From the IMG/VR virus record IMGVR_UViG_3300045988_020586: a stretch of DNA of 64,000 nucleotides; one strand, 5' to 3'. The position numbers and the translations under genes are program-made. Below, piece by piece: positions 1-23,375 of this stretch (position 1 is the stretch's first letter; the number at the start of each line of letters is the position of its first letter). The stretch comes from a virus. The notes beneath the pieces were generated by a model. It was not told the origin of the DNA. It made no database searches and was given only the letters and a program-made list of their open reading frames with translations.

Positions 1-1492
1 CAATTTTTCTGTACCGGTATTACTACCTCCTATTTATAGTGCACGAATATTGGGAATTCAACCCATACATTTCATCTTGTCACCCACTTATAAACGTAAT
101 ATACATGTATAGAGACAGTATACACATATAATATACACAGTCGTTTTACAACATAGAATATAAGCTGCCCATCAATTTCCTGTATTGCTTCGAACCTTTG
201 TGTTTACATATACTGTTGCACAGTATACTTTAGCATGGTTGGCATATCGGTTGGCACTCGATTTCTTTACCTCAAGTCCTTACTTACAACGTAAGATACA
301 CTCTATAAAGGGACATCAATTTTTTGTTAAACATGTTACATTTTAAACTTTCTAGATTTTCATAGTCTATATCTTTTGCATACAACATACGCATATATAA
401 TATACCAGCTTACTACTCTGTAGAGACTATATAATATTGCATATCATAATACAAATAGACTATTGGTCTAAATTGTTTTGGATGAAAGTGGAGGTCAAAT
501 GATCCTGGCTGGATATATCTCGAATCAACTTTCTACCTATTTTGCTATTTCTTATTCTAGGATAGCTTTCCATCAATTTTCTTTGACTGTAACGGAGTCA
601 TCGATCATAGTCTCATGAACGATTTAATTTTCATGGAAATTGGCTGTAAGTTCGGATTGCCTAACATCCTAATTGCAACTGGAATAGATTTTCACCGCGA
701 TCTTCACCCGCGTACGATACTCCCGTAGAGCTTCGATTAAGGGACTGCCCAACCCTTGTGCTTGTTTTACTTTTATATACCGCATAAACAAGAAAAGCCT
801 GGCGGTCTACCATGAACTCAGACGTCTTACACCTCATCCCTGGCACCCCTTCAATGGAGTTGTGACGAATCGAACGTCAAGGACTATATGCCAACGTATT
901 CACCATACGTCCCGTGAGTATTATCCTCACGATATTGCGTCTTAGATAAATTTTTCGGCCTTTATACTAGCTTTGGACACTAGAAACACTACCTACGGCT
1001 TAATAATACTTCTATATTGTTTGGGATATCCTCGGTTCTTCCAGCACCATGCACCATACCATGTATGCAATTCTGTTCACCTACTGGGGACCAATATAGT
1101 TCATCTCGTGTAACGTTCGTGTATGCTTAGTATTATCACATACAATTCCGATACGGTTCATTATGCCCTTCTTGGGACTTATGCGTTTTTAGATTACACA
1201 GCCTCATCCAGCTTGTCTCCAGACGGTTCTCACAAGTCCAGCTGTGTAATCTATAGGAGTTGATACAACGCTACTCCTACCTATATCAAACCGTTTCAAT
1301 GTTTGATACATTTCATCCTACCTTTTGAGTGATCTCGCCCTGCAAGACAGGGTTAACATATTCTCGGATCCAGTTTAATTTGATTGAGTTTTTCTTCTAG
1401 CTCCTTCGCGGGGGGATGTTCCAGAATAGTACGTAGACTAATGGGATCTACTATATGTACTTACCTAATTATAGCACATAGGGTTCTTATGT
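1..1492. other. ORF-free, hairpin-dense non-coding tract (continues beyond window start)
   Basis: Only one weak 61-aa frame. All three stop codons are frequent in all six frames. Many perfect stems, e.g. GATTACACAGC 1192-1202 / GCTGTGTAATC 1241-1251, TAGGAGT 1254-1260 / ACTCCTA 1273-1279, TATCAAAC 1284-1291 / GTTTGATA 1301-1308. Confidence 0.6.
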
Positions 1493-1995: not shown

Positions 1996-3507
1996 TTATT
2001 TTTTTACCTGAGCCTTAGCCTTACCCTTGGCTTCCTTCTTCTTGTTCTCTGCTGCCTTCTTATCAGCTGCTTCCTTAGCAGCCTTGGCAACAGCCTCTTC
2101 CTCGGCCTTGATCTCTTCGTCGGTCTTAAATGCCAAGTCGATAATATTCTCCTTAGCATAACCTACGAGCGGATCAGAAGGATTACGGAACAGATTAGAG
2201 ATGATACCTGCATACTGAGTAGCGTTATCCAGCATAGAATCAGACTTAACCTTAGCCATCATCTCTGGAACTACATCGCGATAGTATGCACGCTTAATAG
2301 AGATAACAGTCTTCTTAGCGAAGCTATTACCATCCAAGAAGTTCTTCTTCAGGTTCTCAACAAACTCACCTGGAGCTGCAATAACTGCTGCAGTAGCCTT
2401 ATCGGCAAATGCGATATTCTTGTTAGCTGTATCGATATGCGCCTGAACACGCTCCTTCTCAGGAAGCTTGTTCTCTTCCTCAATCATAATCTTGCCCTTA
2501 GAGCGAACCTCATCAGCACTGATAAGAACAAGACATCTTACAGCGTCTGCAATCTGATTATCGGTATACTTACATACACCGGTGTTCTTGTCTGTAGAAT
2601 GGTCAAGAAGCTCACAGAACGCAGATACAGGAGATCCTGACGTAGCGGTAACGTTGAAGAGGTGAGCGCCAATTCCATAAGTGAGAGTTCCGACACGACC
2701 CGTAAGGCTAACAACCTCACGAAACACGTCATGAAAATTCATGTTGTTGACACGCTCAAGATTACTCTTAGCAGAAGCAAGAGCCTTCTCAGCGTTTTCC
2801 TTGTACTTCTTGTCCTTGGTGTCCTTAAGTGTCTTCTCGGCGGACTCGATCGCACGCTTAGCTTCGATAGAGCGATATGCCTTATAGAAGTTCACGCACT
2901 GCATAATGCTGTCCATAAGCTTAGAATCACGATTCATAGCCAGGAAACCAGACAACGCCTCCTTAAGCTCTTCCTCATCCTTGATCTTTGTAGGATCAAA
3001 GACCTTACCTGCTGTTGCAGCACGAGCCTGTGCGTCTTTGTCAAGATTCTTTGCAGTCTCTTCTGAAACTTGTACAGCTGCACCTGTAACCTCAACTGCT
3101 TCAGCGTCTTCGGTCGAAGGCAAGAGCTTAGCCTCGTCAAAGTTTACACCAATCTCTTTAAGAGCTTCCTTAAGCTCTGGGAGCGCAGACTTGCGAATTA
3201 CTAACGCAAAGTCACTAGAACCATACTTAACCTCATTGCACATGCATACAGCAATGCCAAGAGCATTAATATGATTGATCTTGTCGATGGCTCCCTGCGG
3301 GATACCAGTATGCTCTGCAGCGTTCTCATCCAAGAAGAAACGATCATGAGCCATCTTCAACAAGTCTACCTGATGGTTACGGTCCATGCTTGACCCACCT
3401 GTTGTTGTGAGCATAGCTGCAGCCTCAACAGCTGCATTTACACCGTTATCACCATTGTTGTTATTCTGGGCAACCTTAACGTTACCCTTGTTCTTTTTAT
3501 TAGCCAT
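1996..3507 (-). CDS. 503-aa protein with Lys/Ala-rich basic C-terminal tail; function unknown, probably abundant
   Basis: Long intact ORF. Codon usage is visibly richer in G/C-ending codons than its neighbours and produces long antisense shadow ORFs. C-terminus KAEEEAVAKAAKEAADKKAAENKKKEAKGKAKAQVKK. Confidence 0.8.
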   Translation of the reverse strand: MANKKNKGNVKVAQNNNNGDNGVNAAVEAAAMLTTTGGSSMDRNHQVDLLKMAHDRFFLDENAAEHTGIPQGAIDKINHINALGIAVCMCNEVKYGSSDFALVIRKSALPELKEALKEIGVNFDEAKLLPSTEDAEAVEVTGAAVQVSEETAKNLDKDAQARAATAGKVFDPTKIKDEEELKEALSGFLAMNRDSKLMDSIMQCVNFYKAYRSIEAKRAIESAEKTLKDTKDKKYKENAEKALASAKSNLERVNNMNFHDVFREVVSLTGRVGTLTYGIGAHLFNVTATSGSPVSAFCELLDHSTDKNTGVCKYTDNQIADAVRCLVLISADEVRSKGKIMIEEENKLPEKERVQAHIDTANKNIAFADKATAAVIAAPGEFVENLKKNFLDGNSFAKKTVISIKRAYYRDVVPEMMAKVKSDSMLDNATQYAGIISNLFRNPSDPLVGYAKENIIDLAFKTDEEIKAEEEAVAKAAKEAADKKAAENKKKEAKGKAKAQVKK

Positions 3508-3975: not shown

Positions 3976-4533
3976 TTAAACTTTTAAGTTATTTTTAATT
4001 TTCCTACGAGTGCGGCTTAATGCTGCTTTTATAGTGCCTGTAGGAGTTTTTAGCACTTTGCTAATTTCGTCAACTGATAGATCCTCTACGTAAAACAAAT
4101 TAAAAATCTTTTGTGTCTTTTTAGGGAGCTTTTCAAACTCCTTTAAAAGAAATTCGTGTTCAAGAAGATTGACAAGATCTTCTTCTTCCGAAGAACTAGT
4201 TAATTCTACGGGTAGTCGGCCCATATCTTCTCCTAATTCCATAGATTTCTCCTTTATCTTTCGTAAATAATCTATAGCCGTTCTATTAGCTATAATTCTC
4301 AGCCATCCGCCAAAAGACGAATAATCTGTGAATGTCGAGAGTTTCTGGTGAACCTTAAGAAATACAACATTTGTAAGATCTTTAGCTTCATCCATATCAT
4401 TCACGTAATGAAAGAGTACGTTGTCAACGAACTCCTTATAACGGTTAAACAATTTATTAAACGCAAGCTCATTTCCCTTCTGAGCTTCTTTTATGGTCTC
4501 AATCTCAGATTGAGTGATACGCTGATACTCCAT
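3976..4533 (-). CDS. ECF-type (sigma-70 family, group 4) RNA polymerase sigma factor
   Basis: 185 aa. Region-2-like FGGWLRIIANRTAIDYLRK and region-4 helix-turn-helix LSVDEISKVLKTPTGTIKAALSRTRRKI. Confidence 0.8.
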   Translation of the reverse strand: MEYQRITQSEIETIKEAQKGNELAFNKLFNRYKEFVDNVLFHYVNDMDEAKDLTNVVFLKVHQKLSTFTDYSSFGGWLRIIANRTAIDYLRKIKEKSMELGEDMGRLPVELTSSSEEEDLVNLLEHEFLLKEFEKLPKKTQKIFNLFYVEDLSVDEISKVLKTPTGTIKAALSRTRRKIKNNLKV

Positions 4534-5522: not shown

Positions 5523-5581
5523 GAAGAAGCTGGGGAATCGAACCCCAGACCCAAACCAAAAGGCGACGGTACCAACTTCTT
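5523..5581 (-). other. tRNA-like minihelix (acceptor-like stem plus canonical T-arm, no D or anticodon arm)
   Basis: Minus strand AAGAAGT...TGGGG-TTCGATT-CCCCA-GCTTCTT-C. The 7-bp closing stem has one G-U pair, and 27 nt lie between the stem and the T-arm. Confidence 0.3.
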
Positions 5582-5609
5582 TCTTCTCTCCACTTAGGTA
5601 GGAAGCACC

Positions 5610-5642
5610 TAGACTAAACTTACGCTACGCAAGTATAGTCTA
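5610..5642 (-). terminator. long hairpin (15 bp, one mismatch), better paired on the minus-strand RNA
   Basis: TAGACTAAACTTACG-CTA-CGCAAGTATAGTCTA. The A-C mismatch on plus becomes G-U on minus. No U-run follows, so its function is uncertain. Confidence 0.35.
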
Positions 5643-5728
5643 CAATGTTATTTACATTGCCGTTTAATTTATAGTATAGTGCTTAATGTATTTATCTCCT
5701 CTGTCTGTCAAAACCAAACACGCCCGTG

Positions 5729-5751
5729 TAGGCAGTTTTACAACATGCCTA
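5729..5751. repeat. hairpin family C copy 1 (loop GTTTTACAACA)
   Basis: Stem TAGGCA/TGCCTA around loop 5735-5745. Confidence 0.5.
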
Positions 5752-5808
5752 GGTTGCCACGTTTTCGCGAACAAAAATGTGATCTGTCATACATAGACAC
5801 AAACAGAA

Positions 5809-5831
5809 TAGACAGTTTTACAACATGTCTG
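5809..5831. repeat. hairpin family C copy 2 (loop GTTTTACAACA)
   Basis: Stem TAGACA/TGTCTG around loop 5815-5825. It shows a compensatory G-C to A-T change relative to copy 1. Confidence 0.5.
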
Positions 5832-5859
5832 GGTTGTTGTTCAGATTGAACACTCTCTG

Positions 5860-6700
5860 CGGGAGGGTGTGGACGTGAGGGGAGTCGACAAAATCTTCAA
5901 GTTCATTGCAACTATTCCACTCTGCTCCACGTTATATTTATATGGAACAGATAAAGAAATATATGCAAAACAGAAAGTTAATAACTTTCGTTTGTGATTG
6001 TTGTGGAAAAGAAGCTCAAAAACCTCTTTCCGAATACAACAGAAACAAGAAACTTGGTAGGAAGAATTTTTGTAGTAGAAGTTGTGCAATTCGTTATGCT
6101 AATAAAAATAAATTACATACATTTACAGATAAATGTAGAGAACATCTTTTAAGTATTTGCAACAATCAAATAGACGAATATACCGATTTTAGATATATCC
6201 TTAGAAGTGTCTATAAAAGATTTAAAGAAGTAGATATAGATTTAGAGTATCTAAAACAACTTTGGGAGACACAAAAAGGAATTTGCCCTTATACTGGTAT
6301 AAAATTAAAGCTTCCAACATATAAAAGCCATAACTTCTATTTTGATTGTGCATCTTTAGACAGAATAGATTCTTCTAAAGGCTACGTTAAAGGAAATGTT
6401 CAATTCATATCATTACCTATAAATTATATGAAATCTACTAAATCAGATATTGAAATCAGACAATTTCTTAAACAAATTTCTTCTTACACTTCACATTTCT
6501 GCGAAGATGAGACTATCTCTTCACCTAAAGAGGTGTTGGGCGCTCGAGCTGGTAATTAAGAAGACTATACTTCTCCAGTAGTCGTTGCACTTTCTTGTGG
6601 TGTACCACAAGCTTAGCTCAGGGTTAGCATGAACAATACTAGCTTTGAGCTATTATTGTTTTTAGCCTTCCTTGAATTCACCCAATATGGGCTCGGTAAG
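5860..6700 (+). mobile_element. group I intron-like element carrying an HNH ORF; boundaries and host exons unresolved
   Basis: P7-like GAGACTA 6509-6515 and TAGTC 6579-6583, flanking hairpins CACCT-AAAG-AGGTG and AGAAG/CTTCT. P9-like CTTGTGG-TGTA-CCACAAG 6594-6611. Same layout as the two splicing-competent introns in this window. Confidence 0.35.
5942..6559 (+). CDS. HNH-family homing endonuclease
   Basis: Zn-ribbon-like CDCCGKE...CSRSC at the N-terminus. C-terminal ASLDRIDSSKGYVKGNVQFIS motif typical of phage HNH endonucleases. ATG at 5942 (the track ORF begins at 5906). No in-frame TAG. Confidence 0.75.
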   Translation: MEQIKKYMQNRKLITFVCDCCGKEAQKPLSEYNRNKKLGRKNFCSRSCAIRYANKNKLHTFTDKCREHLLSICNNQIDEYTDFRYILRSVYKRFKEVDIDLEYLKQLWETQKGICPYTGIKLKLPTYKSHNFYFDCASLDRIDSSKGYVKGNVQFISLPINYMKSTKSDIEIRQFLKQISSYTSHFCEDETISSPKEVLGARAGN

Positions 6701-6897
6701 AACCCCTGTCCAAACAGATTATTTCATACACACTGTACATTTGTTTTGTAAATGTCCTGATGATCAGTCAGAACATTTGATTTAAACCACTTTAGGTGCG
6801 TTCTAAGGCATTTTTGCGACACTTGTGGTTAATTACTCCACTCGGTGACATACTCTGCCTCAGAATGCATTAGAACATGGTTGAAAATATATAGGAA

Positions 6898-9035: not shown

Positions 9036-9064
9036 GTTTTAAAGATTCACGGAATCATCTATTG

Positions 9065-9137
9065 TGATACATATGGGACTCGAACCCATGACCCATAGAT
9101 TAAAAATCTATTGCTCTACCAACTGAGCTAATGTATC
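9065..9137 (-). tRNA. tRNA-Lys (anticodon UUU)
   Basis: Hand-folded cloverleaf: acceptor GATACAT/ATGTATC, D-arm GCTC-AGTTGGTA-GAGC, anticodon arm ATAGA-TTTTTAA-TCTAT, T-arm ATGGG-TTCGAGT-CCCAT. Confidence 0.85.
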
Positions 9138-9229
9138 AAAAGAAGGAATACACACATACACCTAGTATTCGTTTAAGTATGCCCTCCTACAGCGGTTACC
9201 AGGAACGCCGCACCACCTCTTCCTTCTTG

Positions 9230-9303
9230 TGGACCAGCTAGGGTTTGAACCTAGGACCTCCAGATTATGAGTCTGTTGCTCTAACCGACTGAGCTACAAG
9301 TCC
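9230..9303 (-). tRNA. tRNA with CAU anticodon (Met, or Ile2 if lysidine-modified)
   Basis: Acceptor GGACTTG/CTGGTCC (one mismatch, one G-U), D-arm GCTC-AGTCGGTTA-GAGC, anticodon loop CTCATAA, T-arm CTAGG-TTCAAAC-CCTAG. Confidence 0.8.
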
Positions 9304-13253: not shown

Positions 13254-13370
13254 TGAGGTCTATTCGCGCTTTGAGTAATGAATCAGACTACACCATGATG
13301 CAACATGTGTAGTTTCGTCTAGGTCTCATCAGTGATGATTTTAGACTCTCCCTAGCTGAGTTTAAATAAA

Positions 13371-17861: not shown

Positions 17862-18257
17862 TCATACTTTACTTGCTGTTTTGTTTACACACTCTGTAAA
17901 GTATCCAATCAAGTATGCGAATACCTCGTTAGTATCTTCAGAGAGATTTATATGACACGATTCTAGTATATCTACAGCCGCATGAAATGACTCGTGAGCA
18001 AACGTGTTTACATCATTATAATCATTCCAGATCTTGTTTACTACTATGATTTCGCAATCTTCGTCCGTTGATTTATCATATGCTCCATTTACTGTATAAG
18101 CCGTATATTTAGAATATTCACCATCGCATATAGATGATTCATCTTGTCTAAATGCAAATCTTTTATCTATTACAGACTTATCTGGGTTAACTATAACGAA
18201 TAAACTAAACCCATATACTGTATTGTATTCGTCTATTATACACTTCTTTTTATCCAT
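17862..18257 (-). CDS. putative zinc metallopeptidase-like protein (HExxH)
   Basis: 131 aa with FAHESFHAAVDIL. First gene of the minus-strand module. Confidence 0.65.
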   Translation of the reverse strand: MDKKKCIIDEYNTVYGFSLFVIVNPDKSVIDKRFAFRQDESSICDGEYSKYTAYTVNGAYDKSTDEDCEIIVVNKIWNDYNDVNTFAHESFHAAVDILESCHINLSEDTNEVFAYLIGYFTECVNKTASKV

Positions 18258-18304
18258 ACTATTCTTATTAGTCTTACTATTATTGTTAAGCTTATATATA
18301 GCTC

Positions 18305-18358
18305 TACTATACTGTAATAGCTTATTATACTATATAGTCTTACTATACTGTAATAGCT
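18305..18358. repeat. two perfect 18-nt direct repeats TACTATACTGTAATAGCT in the divergent control region
   Basis: Copies at 18305-18322 and 18341-18358. The related CT(T)ACTAT occurs near 18273 and 18424. Confidence 0.7.
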
Positions 18359-18560
18359 GTACTACTAAAGTAGATCTCCTAAAGAGAATATATAAGAGAA
18401 AGGGTTCTTAGTCTGACTAACCCCTACTATCCCCCTAACGCAAAAAAGCTAAAAAAGTTGCATATTGAATAGAAAAGTGCAATTTATATAAAATTTTTAT
18501 GCAGTTTGCAACCATTCTTACAAAAGTTTACGTTATGACGGCGTAAAACAATTAAATTTA

Positions 18561-18986
18561 ATGGATATGACAAAGATTTTAAAGGTTATTAAGCCTTTCT
18601 TCGTAATGGAGGTTGGCGATACATTTGAGTACAACGACAAAACAAAGGAGTACAAGAGTGTATATAACGAAGAGCATAATAGTTCAAACGAAGAGAATTC
18701 TACAGTTGTTTCCTCATACAATTCAGTTTACACTATTTCTGAAGACTACGCAAAGATGCTGGTTGAAAACGGTTATCTTGAAGAGGTTATGCAAAACACA
18801 AACAATGACAAGCAGTTTGTTAACATATTTGATGAGATTGAACATTTGCTTATTCAGTATAATACTGATTTGAATATTCTCTTAAACTCTGATGACGATA
18901 CACCTCAGTGTTTGAAAGTCGAGAAAGAGACAGTTCTTCGCAATATGATCAAATTACTCAAACACCTTAAGTCGTTGAAAAAGTAA
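18561..18986 (+). CDS. hypothetical protein
   Basis: 141-aa intact ORF with no TAG. First gene of the plus-strand module. Confidence 0.7.
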   Translation: MDMTKILKVIKPFFVMEVGDTFEYNDKTKEYKSVYNEEHNSSNEENSTVVSSYNSVYTISEDYAKMLVENGYLEEVMQNTNNDKQFVNIFDEIEHLLIQYNTDLNILLNSDDDTPQCLKVEKETVLRNMIKLLKHLKSLKK

Positions 18987-18987
18987 T

Positions 18988-19419
18988 ATGGAAGAAGAGA
19001 AGATGATAGATCAGACTCAGCTGGCAGAGGACTTAAGCTCAAAGATAAAGTATGAGTTTAGACAGATGTTCTTGGTAAAGCCGCTTGAGCCTGTTAAAGT
19101 TAAAAAGAAGATCTCCGAACCTGTGGCTAAGGACACTAAGCCAAAGAAGGATAAGGATGGGATCGAAGCAGTTGATTACGATGATGTAAAGACAGAGATT
19201 AAGGAAGTTGATTCAGATTTCTCTAGAGCTGTTGTGCTTAAGTTGCCATATGAGTATACACACCCATACGACGATGAAAAGATTCAGCAGATGCCTATCA
19301 AGGTTGGTGATATTGTTATATACAGATCTGCTAGAGGAGCTATGTATTTCGACTTACTTAAAGATTCTCAACTTGTATCTCTTTACGATATTGTAGCAAC
19401 GGAGACAGTAGAGAAGTAA
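18988..19419 (+). CDS. hypothetical protein; C-terminal part faintly GroES/co-chaperonin-like
   Basis: 143 aa. IKVGDIVIYRSARGAMYFDLLKDSQLVSLYDIVA resembles the GroES C-terminal pattern (by eye only). Confidence 0.65.
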   Translation: MEEEKMIDQTQLAEDLSSKIKYEFRQMFLVKPLEPVKVKKKISEPVAKDTKPKKDKDGIEAVDYDDVKTEIKEVDSDFSRAVVLKLPYEYTHPYDDEKIQQMPIKVGDIVIYRSARGAMYFDLLKDSQLVSLYDIVATETVEK

Positions 19420-20885: not shown

Positions 20886-20956
20886 CGCGGGATGGTGAAA
20901 TGGTATCACGTGTGGCTCATAACCATAGATTGCTAGTTCGACTCTAGCTCCCGCAA
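20886..20956 (+). tRNA. tRNA-Met-like (anticodon CAU), C1-A72 mismatch
   Basis: Acceptor CGCGGGA/TCCCGCA with an unpaired first position as in bacterial initiator tRNA. Anticodon arm TGTGG-CTCATAA-CCATA (CAT at 20918-20920). T-arm GCTAG-TTCGACT-CTAGC. Confidence 0.8.
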
Positions 20957-21174
20957 CACTGAGCTTCGATTGTGTGGTGTTCTACATATTTGGCCACCAG
21001 GAGCGAAATTGATATCAGAAAAATATGTCGGCTACAATGGTTTAAAGTGTAGCAATGTAGTTTTAGGCAGATAAAAAGCTCGGTAGCCTAAGGTGAGCTT
21101 CTACAATATTGCCCATTCGCGTACCAGCTAGCGCACCGGGCTCTTTTGTCCAATGAATAATTGAATATATAATA

Positions 21175-22446: not shown

Positions 22447-23375
22447 AGAATATTGATACGTTATTGAGTATCAATGCAACCAACTCTATTCGCATATCGT
22501 TATGATGATATAACTAAACACAAAATATCATGATAACAAAAATTTGCAAACAATGTGGTAAGGAATTTGATGTACCAGAATACAGAAAGGATGCTAAATA
22601 CTGCTGTGACGAATGTAAACACAAAGCACTGCATGGAGATTTAAATTGTGAGTGTGAGGTTTGTGGCAAGAAATTCCACTTAAAACCATACGCTCTTAAA
22701 AAGAGTAAACATCATACATGTAGCCGCGAGTGTTTAAACAAACTTAAAAGTACATTATATAAAGGTGAAGGAAATCATCAATATGGTCTAAAAGGCGATA
22801 AGAATTCATCTTTCAAAGGAAACGTAATCCTGCGTAAGAACAATGGACTAATCGAGAGAATGATCTACAATCCTAGACACCCATACGCTGATCGTAATGG
22901 TAGGATTAAGGAACACAGATTAATAGTTGAGCAGAATTACAAAATGTTTGACGATAAATACTTTGAAGTTATAAACGGAGAGCATTATTTAAAGAAGAAT
23001 GTAGATGTACATCACATTAACTTTAATCATAACGATAATAGAATAGAAAACCTAATTCCCTTGACTAGAGCGGAACATACAAAGCTTCATAACCAAAATG
23101 AAGTTATATACAGAAATGAGAAGGGAATGATAATTGGTGTCTTAAAACAGGGTGAATTGCTGGAAAAGCCTGAAGAGGTCAATCAGCAGCCAAGCTTGGG
23201 TAGTGATACCCTTGAAGGTTCAGAGACTAACAGCCGAGTCTTACGAGACAGTAATGCTGACACGAGTGCCCTGCCCGGAAACGGTGAAGATATAGTCCGA
23301 TCTACTGATAACAAAATAAACAGTAGAAATATAGAGATAAAGAGCTCTATAGATTAACAACTCCTAATTTTGTTG
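22447..23375 (+). mobile_element. group I intron in dUTPase gene (junctions +/- a few nt)
   Basis: Splits motif III GVIDA|DYRGEI. Exon 1 ends in T and the intron ends in G. Core strings CAGAGACTA 23221-23229 and GATATAGTCC 23289-23298; GNRA hairpin CCG-GAAA-CGG. Contains an HNH ORF. Confidence 0.7.
22530..23357 (+). CDS. intron-encoded HNH homing endonuclease
   Basis: 275 aa. Cys-rich N-terminus and VHHINFNHNDNRIENLIPLTRAEHTKLH. No in-frame TAG. Confidence 0.85.
   Translation: MITKICKQCGKEFDVPEYRKDAKYCCDECKHKALHGDLNCECEVCGKKFHLKPYALKKSKHHTCSRECLNKLKSTLYKGEGNHQYGLKGDKNSSFKGNVILRKNNGLIERMIYNPRHPYADRNGRIKEHRLIVEQNYKMFDDKYFEVINGEHYLKKNVDVHHINFNHNDNRIENLIPLTRAEHTKLHNQNEVIYRNEKGMIIGVLKQGELLEKPEEVNQQPSLGSDTLEGSETNSRVLRDSNADTSALPGNGEDIVRSTDNKINSRNIEIKSSID

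Follow-up and report, generated by a model that had tools for sequence, protein, structure and literature searches.

A gene-free tract conserved across Suoliviridae phages very probably encodes a structured non-coding RNA

The IMG/VR virus record IMGVR_UViG_3300045988_020586 provides a stretch of 64,000 nucleotides (nt), here called the window, whose first 1,492 positions hold no gene. The window derives from a crAss-like phage. Positions 1-1900 match cr7_1 (NC_055895) at 95% identity and cr124_1 at 92%, and cr7_1 is classified in Crassvirales, Suoliviridae, Oafivirinae, Burzaovirus. In cr7_1, which we number locus L001, the gene-free tract spans 2171 bp (L001 5319-7489). Window position 1 corresponds to L001 6001, so window positions 1-1492 are the right-hand two thirds of the tract and ~680 nt more lie to the left of the window edge. 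A preliminary description of the window, made from the sequence alone, had reported a tract of at least 1.5 kb without credible open reading frames (ORFs). The tract is indeed gene-free, but the element is really ~2.17 kb long, is cut by the window edge and is family-wide. We find that it is under strong purifying selection, and we hold with high confidence that it represents a structured RNA on the minus strand.

The genes around the tract all lie on the minus strand. Their order is common to three clades of Suoliviridae: a sigma factor, a small gene, a protein of ~470-500 amino acids (aa), a protein of ~133 aa, the gap, four to five genes and the DNA polymerase. The upstream minus-strand neighbour is the 133-aa gene, whose stop codon precedes the putative start of the RNA. 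The predicted RNA gene would have its 5' end near 1470 and run leftward past window position 1.

Does the tract encode protein? In agreement with the preliminary description, no credible ORF is present in 1-1492 under the standard code or with TAG read as sense, the longest stop-free stretches being 85 and 146 codons, respectively (the latter on the plus strand, 673-1110). Stops of all three types are frequent in all six frames (three codes checked), and the minus strand, on which the neighbours are encoded, carries 26-37 stops per frame. Public records leave the tract blank or fill it with doubtful ORFs. The plus-strand ORF that requires TAG read-through is a 'hypothetical protein' of the cr7_1 record (L001 6630-7112, window 630-1112), a similar plus-strand ORF is annotated in the Bohxovirus record, L003 5327-5833 is likewise listed as an annotated ORF, and in the Dulem virus 42 record the gap is occupied by a dozen small ORFs (30-100 codons). 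The cr7_1 and Bohxovirus annotations speak for a protein-coding tract with an unusual genetic code, or for a decayed gene. Counter to this, per-site variability compared across 35 Burzaovirus-like genomes is 0.049/0.050/0.056 at the three codon positions of the ORF annotated in cr7_1, and every part of the tract similarly lacks 3-periodicity. The flanking genes, in contrast, are strongly 3-periodic (0.167/0.034/0.062 and 0.169/0.045/0.065). Mean variability is 0.047 in the tract and 0.088-0.093 in the flanking genes. Given the lack of periodicity and a variability about half that of the genes, we conclude that the tract is non-coding and under stronger constraint than its neighbours, which is the opposite of what a pseudogene would show. 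The translated products also look non-protein-like, and periodicity and stop statistics give no protein signal under any code. The ORFs annotated inside the RNA gene are very likely annotation artefacts.

A gene-free gap occurs at the same place in every related genome: 2037 bp in cr131_1, 2025 bp in cr130_1, 2223 bp in cr273_1, 2189 bp in Bohxovirus and 2116 bp in Dulem virus 42. Gap DNA is 70-80% identical between these genera, whereas the adjacent 503-aa protein is only 23-28% identical. With a 16-nt pattern from the best conserved block we retrieved more than 119 IMG/VR loci. A hidden Markov model (HMM) of the gap, searched with nhmmer, matches ~60 of these over its full length, and ~30 other loci match only in a 150-180-nt 'core' (window ~1195-1375). 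In the core-only loci, the core sits at one end of a 2.0-2.1 kb tract without any stop-to-stop ORF of at least 100 codons. The gap is present in every Suoliviridae lineage sampled, and these fall into three clades:

Clade A: Oafivirinae; gap of 2.0-2.2 kb.
Clade B: cr53_1, cr4_1, cr52_1, cr60_1, cr113_1, cr109_1 and cr56_1; gap of 2.0-2.1 kb.
Clade C: Boorivirinae (cr50_1, cr55_1, cr1_1 and cr10_1); gap of 2.4-2.5 kb, with the core at its head.

To compare structure across these clades we used a covariance model of the 5' core (R1, 184 positions), built from a MAFFT alignment. R1 finds exactly one full-length match per genome in 43/43 loci from all three clades, with scores of 99-182 bits; the match in the window is at 1180-1375 on the minus strand (140.5 bits). 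More than 80 distinct core sequences can be aligned, and they form three deep clades. Conservation is concentrated in islands with variable stretches between them. When the core loop pattern was compared with genome contigs as a search for bacterial chromosomal counterparts, the matches listed were due to chance with the exception of one phage contig. This single true genome match among those listed is a 101.5-kb contig (L162, JAJWOH010000001.1, 101,563 bp), a complete-looking phage that carries the full element and is binned in a Segatella copri metagenome-assembled genome (MAG). The binning is a weak hint at the host.

The preliminary description called the tract dense in perfect hairpins. 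Positions 1-1492 contain 35 perfect stems of at least 5 bp and 12 of at least 6 bp, modestly above dinucleotide shuffles (22.8+/-5.0 and 5.9+/-2.4), but they are no denser than in other 1492-nt pieces of the window, which are mostly coding and average 33 and 10. Thus, hairpins deduced from a single sequence or from thermodynamics alone are not clearly beyond chance, and it is covariation that makes the case. At least 25 helices show compensatory base changes. In their alignments, 84-90% of cells are paired, compared to 61-74% in shuffles and 25-58% when partners are slid. Between 9 and 31 pairs per domain are changed on both sides, and almost no shuffle reaches the observed values. Minimum free energy (MFE) folds of 16 representatives place ~35 helices at conserved positions. 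The individual hairpins that had been named from the sequence (1192-1251, 1254-1279, 1284-1308, 1338-1352, 913-931 and 209-228) are all present to within 1-2 nt, and their pairing is kept by compensatory changes.

The same alignments indicate the strand. In a scan of covarying helices in the plus orientation, A:C mismatches exceed G:T (for example 17:2, 11:2, 15:4 and 9:0), which implies that G-U pairs form on the minus strand. In the minus orientation, the helices of the two domains tested contain 125 G-U against 42 A-C. Because G-U outnumbers A-C by ~3:1 in this orientation, we read the RNA from the minus strand, like its neighbours. Predicted energies are lower for the minus strand both in sliding RNAalifold calculations (-431 versus -377 for plus) and in single-sequence MFE folds (-244 versus -198 kcal/mol). 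The base skews of the tract are those of the flanking genes' sense strand and show no inflection. On the RNA strand, AACCGU occurs 63 times and its complement 4 times; the motif is enriched 6.7-fold there and appears in three conserved contexts. Covariation, conservation and G-U strand bias together support the earlier proposal of large structured RNA(s) or an array of cis-elements.

The features of the predicted RNA are as follows, from 5' to 3' in window coordinates and all on the minus strand:

1-1470: window part of the predicted structured non-coding RNA gene (syntenic gap in all relatives, no codon periodicity, low variability, nhmmer matches, strand called from G-U versus A-C).
1465-1492: TAAACA-16 nt-TATAAT, a promoter-like site that overlaps the end of the gene upstream at its stop codon (consensus scan, 10/12 on the cr7_1 copy).
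1424-1459: Pa, a two-tier 5' hairpin, GUAC...GUAGA-UCCCAUUAG-UCUAC-GUAC, with compensatory changes in alignments.
1180-1375: universal 5' core with P1, Pb, Pc, Pd and Pe, found in all three Suoliviridae clades (covariance model R1, pair counts).
1369-1366 with 1318-1315: P1, AUCC with GGAU, enclosing conserved strands and hairpin Pb (1352-1338).
1308-1284: Pc, with loop UGAAA[A/C].
1279-1254: Pd.
1251-1192: Pe, with conserved terminal loop UGAGAACCGUCUGGNGA at ~1233-1217.
1166-1176: small hairpin CCC-AAGAA-GGG, followed by the conserved strand AAUGAACCGUAUCGG (~1163-1149); CCC/GGG becomes CUC/GAG in relatives.
1120-1144: hairpin UGUAUG/CAUACA, in which all 7 stem pairs covary.
1135-1129 with 1010-1004: predicted pseudoknot of loop U(A/G)AUACU with AGUAU(U/C)A, spanning ~125 nt.
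739-984: central multi-hairpin domain of 9 helices and 43 pairs (covariation counts).
984-964, 931-913 (loop GGAUAAUA), 911-893, 860-845, 792-761 and 757-739: hairpins of the central domain.
879-863: T-loop hairpin UGACG-UUCGAUU-CGUCA, 96.8% paired, all 5 pairs covarying.
843-839 with 802-798: medium-range helix of the central domain.
78-315: domain with a closing helix predicted by RNAalifold, UGUC.CC (315-310) with GG.GACA (84-78), enclosing ~220 nt.
295-283, 228-209 and 125-105: hairpins inside this domain, all covarying.
Near 262-247: conserved strand GAGUGCCAACCG inside the same domain.
51-65: hairpin UGGG-UUGAAUU-CCCA with a covarying stem, followed by the conserved strand AUAUUCGUGCACUAUAAA.
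About -608 to -626 (cr7_1, L001 5393-5375): 3' terminator-like hairpin with an A/U-rich tail, recurring in most Oafivirinae clades.

In a plain MAFFT alignment of 37 diverse sequences, not fitted to the structure, the 27 specified pairs of the 5' core are 84.5% paired versus 61.4% in shuffles, slid partners are 33-48% paired, and 26/27 pairs are changed on both sides. In the model alignment, pairing is 89.8% and the covariation score is 0.715 versus 0.189. P1 is paired in 100% of cells even as its sequence changes to GUUC/GAAC, GUAG/CUAC, GUGG/CCAC and GCCC/GGGC in relatives. Upstream of the core, the 9-nt loop of Pa, UCUCAUUAG, is conserved in Oafivirinae, and a helix appears at this place in the MFE folds of 7/10 clades. 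The helix at 1166-1176 is recovered in 8/10 clades.

Region 1195-995, which includes the pseudoknot, is 87.2% paired compared to 73.1%. Within the pseudoknot, alignment pair 88/244 is GC in 8 sequences and AU in 4, and the switch between A-U and G-C occurred twice independently (the window clade versus L056, and L082 versus L005). The central domain is 89.8% paired versus 73.8% in shuffles and 36-42% with slid partners, and 31 of its pairs are changed on both sides. It includes the T-arm-like hairpin (863-879) picked out in the preliminary description, which is real and covarying; neither ARAGORN nor the Rfam tRNA model finds a tRNA there, and the hairpin was not found in clades B and C. Nearer the window edge, the helix closing domain 78-315 has wobble-type support only, plus a perfect GUCACCC/GGGUGAC in L133. 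UGCCAACCG, in this domain, is common to clades A and B. The stem at 51-65 changes between genera from GGG/CCC to GAG/CUC to GUG/CAC.

At the far end, the terminator-like hairpin precedes the conserved leader of the next gene. A nearly invariant element lies directly 5' of that gene's start codon (L001 5319-5365, window ~-681 to -635; minus strand AAUCAUAUCGUUAGUUAAUCAAUAACGAUAUCAAAAAGGAUAUGAUU-AUG). It can form either of two pairings that exclude each other, with covariation in the inner stem (GUUA/UAAC, GUGG/CCAC, GUUU/AAAC). Candidate roles are those of operator, promoter and translational switch. At the other end, the promoter-like site at 1465-1492 is a possible start of the RNA, judging from its match to consensus. 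Promoter-like sites in the region are no more numerous than in shuffles. Nearly all of the clade B genomes examined also have a TATAAT, located ~146 nt 5' of P1.

As in the preliminary description, no known RNA class can be assigned. The window tract and three divergent homologues were scanned with Rfam 15 at the gathering threshold and at E<=10, and no family was detected, including GOLLD, ROOL, HEARO, OLE, transfer-messenger RNA (tmRNA) and introns. The sub-threshold matches (CRISPR-DR65, RAGATH-16, snoRNAs) are inconsistent and were treated as noise. ARAGORN reports nothing in the tract, and neither it nor Rfam detects a tRNA-like module, the T-loop hairpin included. A group I or II intron or a self-cleaving ribozyme was rejected because no catalytic-core model matches in 1-1492, and a tmRNA because neither RF00023 or the permuted models nor ARAGORN match in the tract. 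The same Rfam scans do recover structured RNAs elsewhere in the window: two group I introns, at 6489-6781 (minus, 81 bits) and 23077-23318 (plus, 65 bits); a RAGATH-1 hammerhead ribozyme at 13281-13362 (minus, 72 bits); and three tRNAs, tRNA-Lys(UUU) and two tRNA-Met, at 9064-9137, 9229-9303 and 20886-20957. The first of these is the nearest tRNA to the tract, so the link to nearby tRNA genes made in the preliminary description does not hold. The records of cr7_1 and cr131_1 list a tmRNA that lies upstream of the gap by ~4 kb (L001 11525-11881, window ~5525-5881, minus), although ARAGORN and the Rfam gathering scan report none in the window.

Nine flanking proteins were compared with Pfam and PHROGs, and an ECF-type (extracytoplasmic function) sigma factor was the sole named family. 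It is encoded at window 3976-4533 (minus; Sigma70_r2/r4, PHROG 1740), ~2.5 kb upstream of the RNA and co-oriented with it, in each of the three clades, and the RNA gene could be among the targets that it recognises. The conserved 503-aa protein (window 1996-3507, minus), two genes upstream of the RNA, has a long Lys/Ala-rich tail, as does a 317-aa protein (L001 2238-3191) three genes downstream. The composition of these tails suggests nucleic-acid binding. We considered the 503-aa protein as an RNA-binding partner and rejected it, as it has no relative in the PDB by sequence or profile and is unrelated to the TROVE protein of crAss001.

What might this RNA do? We favour, with about even confidence, a gene present once per genome whose product is a structured non-coding RNA (ncRNA) of very large size (~2.1-2.5 kb) that acts in trans. 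Transcription would start shortly past the stop codon of the 133-aa gene (window ~1470-1490), co-directionally with the flanking genes, and would end ~620 nt beyond the left edge of the window, at the hairpin and A/U-rich tail that sit just ahead of the next gene's conserved leader. The RNA would fold into ~35 mostly local hairpins arranged in sub-domains, with the universal 5' core, the pseudoknot, the T-loop hairpin and the helix closing a 220-nt domain, and with loops and junction strands conserved in sequence. Like the long ncRNAs of phage phi14:2, it may accumulate stably and abundantly early in infection. It could then act as an ornate RNA or ribonucleoprotein (RNP) whose conserved loops make tertiary contacts and/or bind phage or host proteins, for example to sequester or scaffold a host factor during takeover. 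We infer stable early accumulation and action in trans from the conserved total length, the location of the 5' core ~1.9 kb from the next gene, the sequence-specific loops and junctions, the pseudoknot and T-loop, and the phi14:2 precedent. The choice of trans over cis is about evenly balanced.

A bolder version is that every Suoliviridae member needs a single folded RNA of ~2.1-2.5 kb that is an RNA machine, or an RNA-only or RNP assembly, of a new functional class. It could be catalytic or cage-like, as are ROOL and GOLLD, or could imitate a host RNA and so capture a host factor or defence sensor. If so, it would be the largest structured non-ribosomal phage RNA yet seen. We regard this version as tentative and, on balance, unlikely.

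Several observations weigh against a single trans-acting RNA. The folding z-score over window 1-1000 is weak (minus -1.37, plus +0.12). Nearly all supported helices are short-range, with spans <100 nt, and among the long-range helices in single-sequence MFE folds only one medium-range helix recurs. There is no convincing conserved promoter, as Bacteroidetes TAnnTTTG and sigma-70 type motifs are not consistently placed. The flanking proteins scanned carry no RNA-binding signature, and the AlphaFold model of the 503-aa protein is too poor for use (pLDDT 56), because two large protein searches gave only near-identical Burzaovirus sequences. Support for transcription of the tract is indirect, coming from the RNA-type covariation with its G-U strand bias and from analogy with phi14:2, and that analogy is one of position, there being no similarity by sequence or model and part of the phi14:2 gap being tmRNA-like. 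To our knowledge, no Suoliviridae phage has been cultured. Finally, the covariation would look no different if the tract held a set of separate small RNAs or a long structured leader.

The last point leads to two alternatives, each of which we consider unlikely. The tract could be a very long structured leader or spacer that acts in cis on the downstream operon, through processive antitermination, attenuation at the terminal hairpin or as a platform for RNase processing. Its direction is that of both neighbours, the promoter search gave no clear candidate belonging to the tract itself, and the terminator-like hairpin is followed by a strongly conserved palindromic leader (ATCGTTA..TAACGAT, then ATCAAAAAGGAT) directly 5' of the next start codon. 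However, known antitermination and attenuation RNAs are 50-300 nt long, whereas here a length of 2.0-2.5 kb is kept in three clades, with the universal 5' core far from the regulated gene.

Alternatively, and with a similarly low probability, the tract could comprise several small RNAs that are independent of one another and arise by processing or by separate transcription. The short span of most supported helices and the islands of conservation separated by variable stretches are consistent with this, and phi14:2 gave two separate intergenic transcripts (bioRxiv 10.1101/2020.03.07.982082). Arguing for one molecule instead, a terminator-like site was found just once, at the extreme 3' end, internal promoters are not conspicuous, the pseudoknot spans ~125 nt, a helix encloses ~220 nt, and total length is conserved.

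A third alternative, which we think rather improbable, is a replication origin that acts in cis through a structured RNA, either a primer or part of an R-loop, as in ColE1 RNA II and the transcription-activated origins of T4 and T7. An RNA-DNA hybrid formed by early transcription would persist and serve as primer for the phage DNA polymerase, whose gene lies downstream. The tract heads the gene block leading to that polymerase, its RNA structure is conserved, as ColE1-type primers also require, and we know of no other origin described for these phages. Counter to this, neither GC nor AT skew, the origin signatures examined, has an inflection at the tract. Furthermore, ~35 conserved hairpins with sequence-specific loops over 2.1-2.5 kb far exceed the known needs of primer RNAs, and the best conserved part is at the 5' end, ~1.9 kb from the downstream genes. 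The cumulative GC skew changes from falling to rising at ~18000-19000, its sole inflection in the window, and this probably reflects a switch of gene orientation.

The remaining alternatives are largely excluded. Hairpins might act in DNA, as single-stranded or supercoiled structures (promoters of the N4 virion RNA polymerase type, priming or packaging) or as palindromic protein sites. A virion RNA polymerase resembling that of N4, for which no promoters have been described, is carried by crAss-like phages (bioRxiv 10.1101/2020.03.07.982082), and palindromic operators also covary symmetrically. Yet the 3:1 excess of G-U over A-C on one strand is unexpected for duplex palindromes bound by dimers, and ~35 unrelated hairpins with asymmetric internal loops, a pseudoknot and a T-loop are typical of RNA. 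Such promoters would also have no genes within 2 kb to drive, and we consider a DNA-level element very improbable. Protein coding, whether by an unusual code or as a decayed gene, is for practical purposes refuted by the periodicity and stop statistics.

Returning to a structured ncRNA as the preferred reading, we found no description of the tract in the literature searched, including genome-analysis papers checked for non-coding or intergenic content, where several searches were limited by word matching. Few viruses of the human gut are as abundant as crAss-like phages, yet ~2% of every Suoliviridae genome is unannotated or mis-annotated as small hypothetical proteins. Constraint on the tract is stronger than on the neighbouring genes, and the RNA would be several times larger than known phage-associated ornate RNAs. 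Together, these point to an unrecognised and apparently indispensable RNA function in infection. Of more immediate use, the 5' core model is a marker of Suoliviridae, with one match per genome, and flags spurious ORF calls in public records.

In kind, the element resembles other large structured phage ncRNAs; it is set apart by its size, its fixed syntenic position in the replication/early block and its presence in every sampled member of Suoliviridae. GOLLD and ROOL, roughly 0.6-0.8 kb in size and often found in phages or prophages, are likewise large, non-coding and rich in covarying helices, and they have pseudoknots, of which one is predicted here. The element described here differs in being 2.1-2.5 kb long, ~3-4x their length, and in lying away from tRNA genes, in one phage family and at one fixed syntenic position. 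OLE, the HEARO/IscB omega-RNA and raiA-type RNAs share a conserved complex secondary structure without coding capacity; no model of these matches here, and there is no adjacent signature protein (OapA-type, IscB/TnpB). ColE1 RNA II is also a structured RNA transcribed toward replication functions, but the element is ~4x longer, shows no skew signature of an origin and gives no evidence of an antisense regulator.

Comparison with other crAss-like phages is of particular interest. In crAss001 (NC_049977), Gp96 is a TROVE and Ro60-vWA protein (Ro60/Rsr-like) of ~470 aa. Just downstream on the same strand is a 905-bp gap (L283 35966-36870; NC_049977 95965-96869), in which an Rfam tRNA match of 46.6 bits is stretched over 144 nt. 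Gp96 and this gap look like an Rsr plus Y-RNA (YrlA-like) module. Similarly, in the window the second gene upstream of the gap encodes a ~500-aa protein, and a T-loop hairpin is part of the predicted RNA. Unlike the Ro60 system, the 503-aa protein has no TROVE or vWA similarity (Pfam, PDB profile search, hhalign), Y RNAs are 100-200 nt long, and no tRNA-like module was detected in this tract.

In phi14:2, the intergenic region g004-g006 is transcribed co-directionally, above most genes, early and persistently (bioRxiv 10.1101/2020.03.07.982082). It yields two separate long transcripts, g004-g005 and g005-g006; according to Drobysheva et al. (bioRxiv 10.1101/2020.03.07.982082), what they do 'remain[s] to be determined'. 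Its gene-free tract (NC_021806 2905-4601) and that of Suoliviridae are alike in length (both 1.7-2.2 kb), in being co-directional with their neighbours and in lying ~5 kb upstream of the DNA polymerase. They differ in that the phages belong to different families (Steigviridae versus Suoliviridae) and in that part of the phi14:2 gap matches tmRNA, whereas the Suoliviridae tract does not in the same search. The tmRNA-like match (L161 4031-4502, NC_021806, plus) scores 46 bits against a gathering score of 47, with E 1.4e-16; by this match, a phage tmRNA may account for at least one of the 'long non-coding RNAs' reported from phi14:2. Homology of the Suoliviridae tract with the phi14:2 gap or with crAss001 was rejected, as nhmmer and R1 returned nothing significant. 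Considering these loci together, a non-coding RNA locus at this position may be a general theme of crAss-like phages, with contents that differ by family, and the Suoliviridae element offers a route to follow up the long non-coding RNAs of phi14:2.

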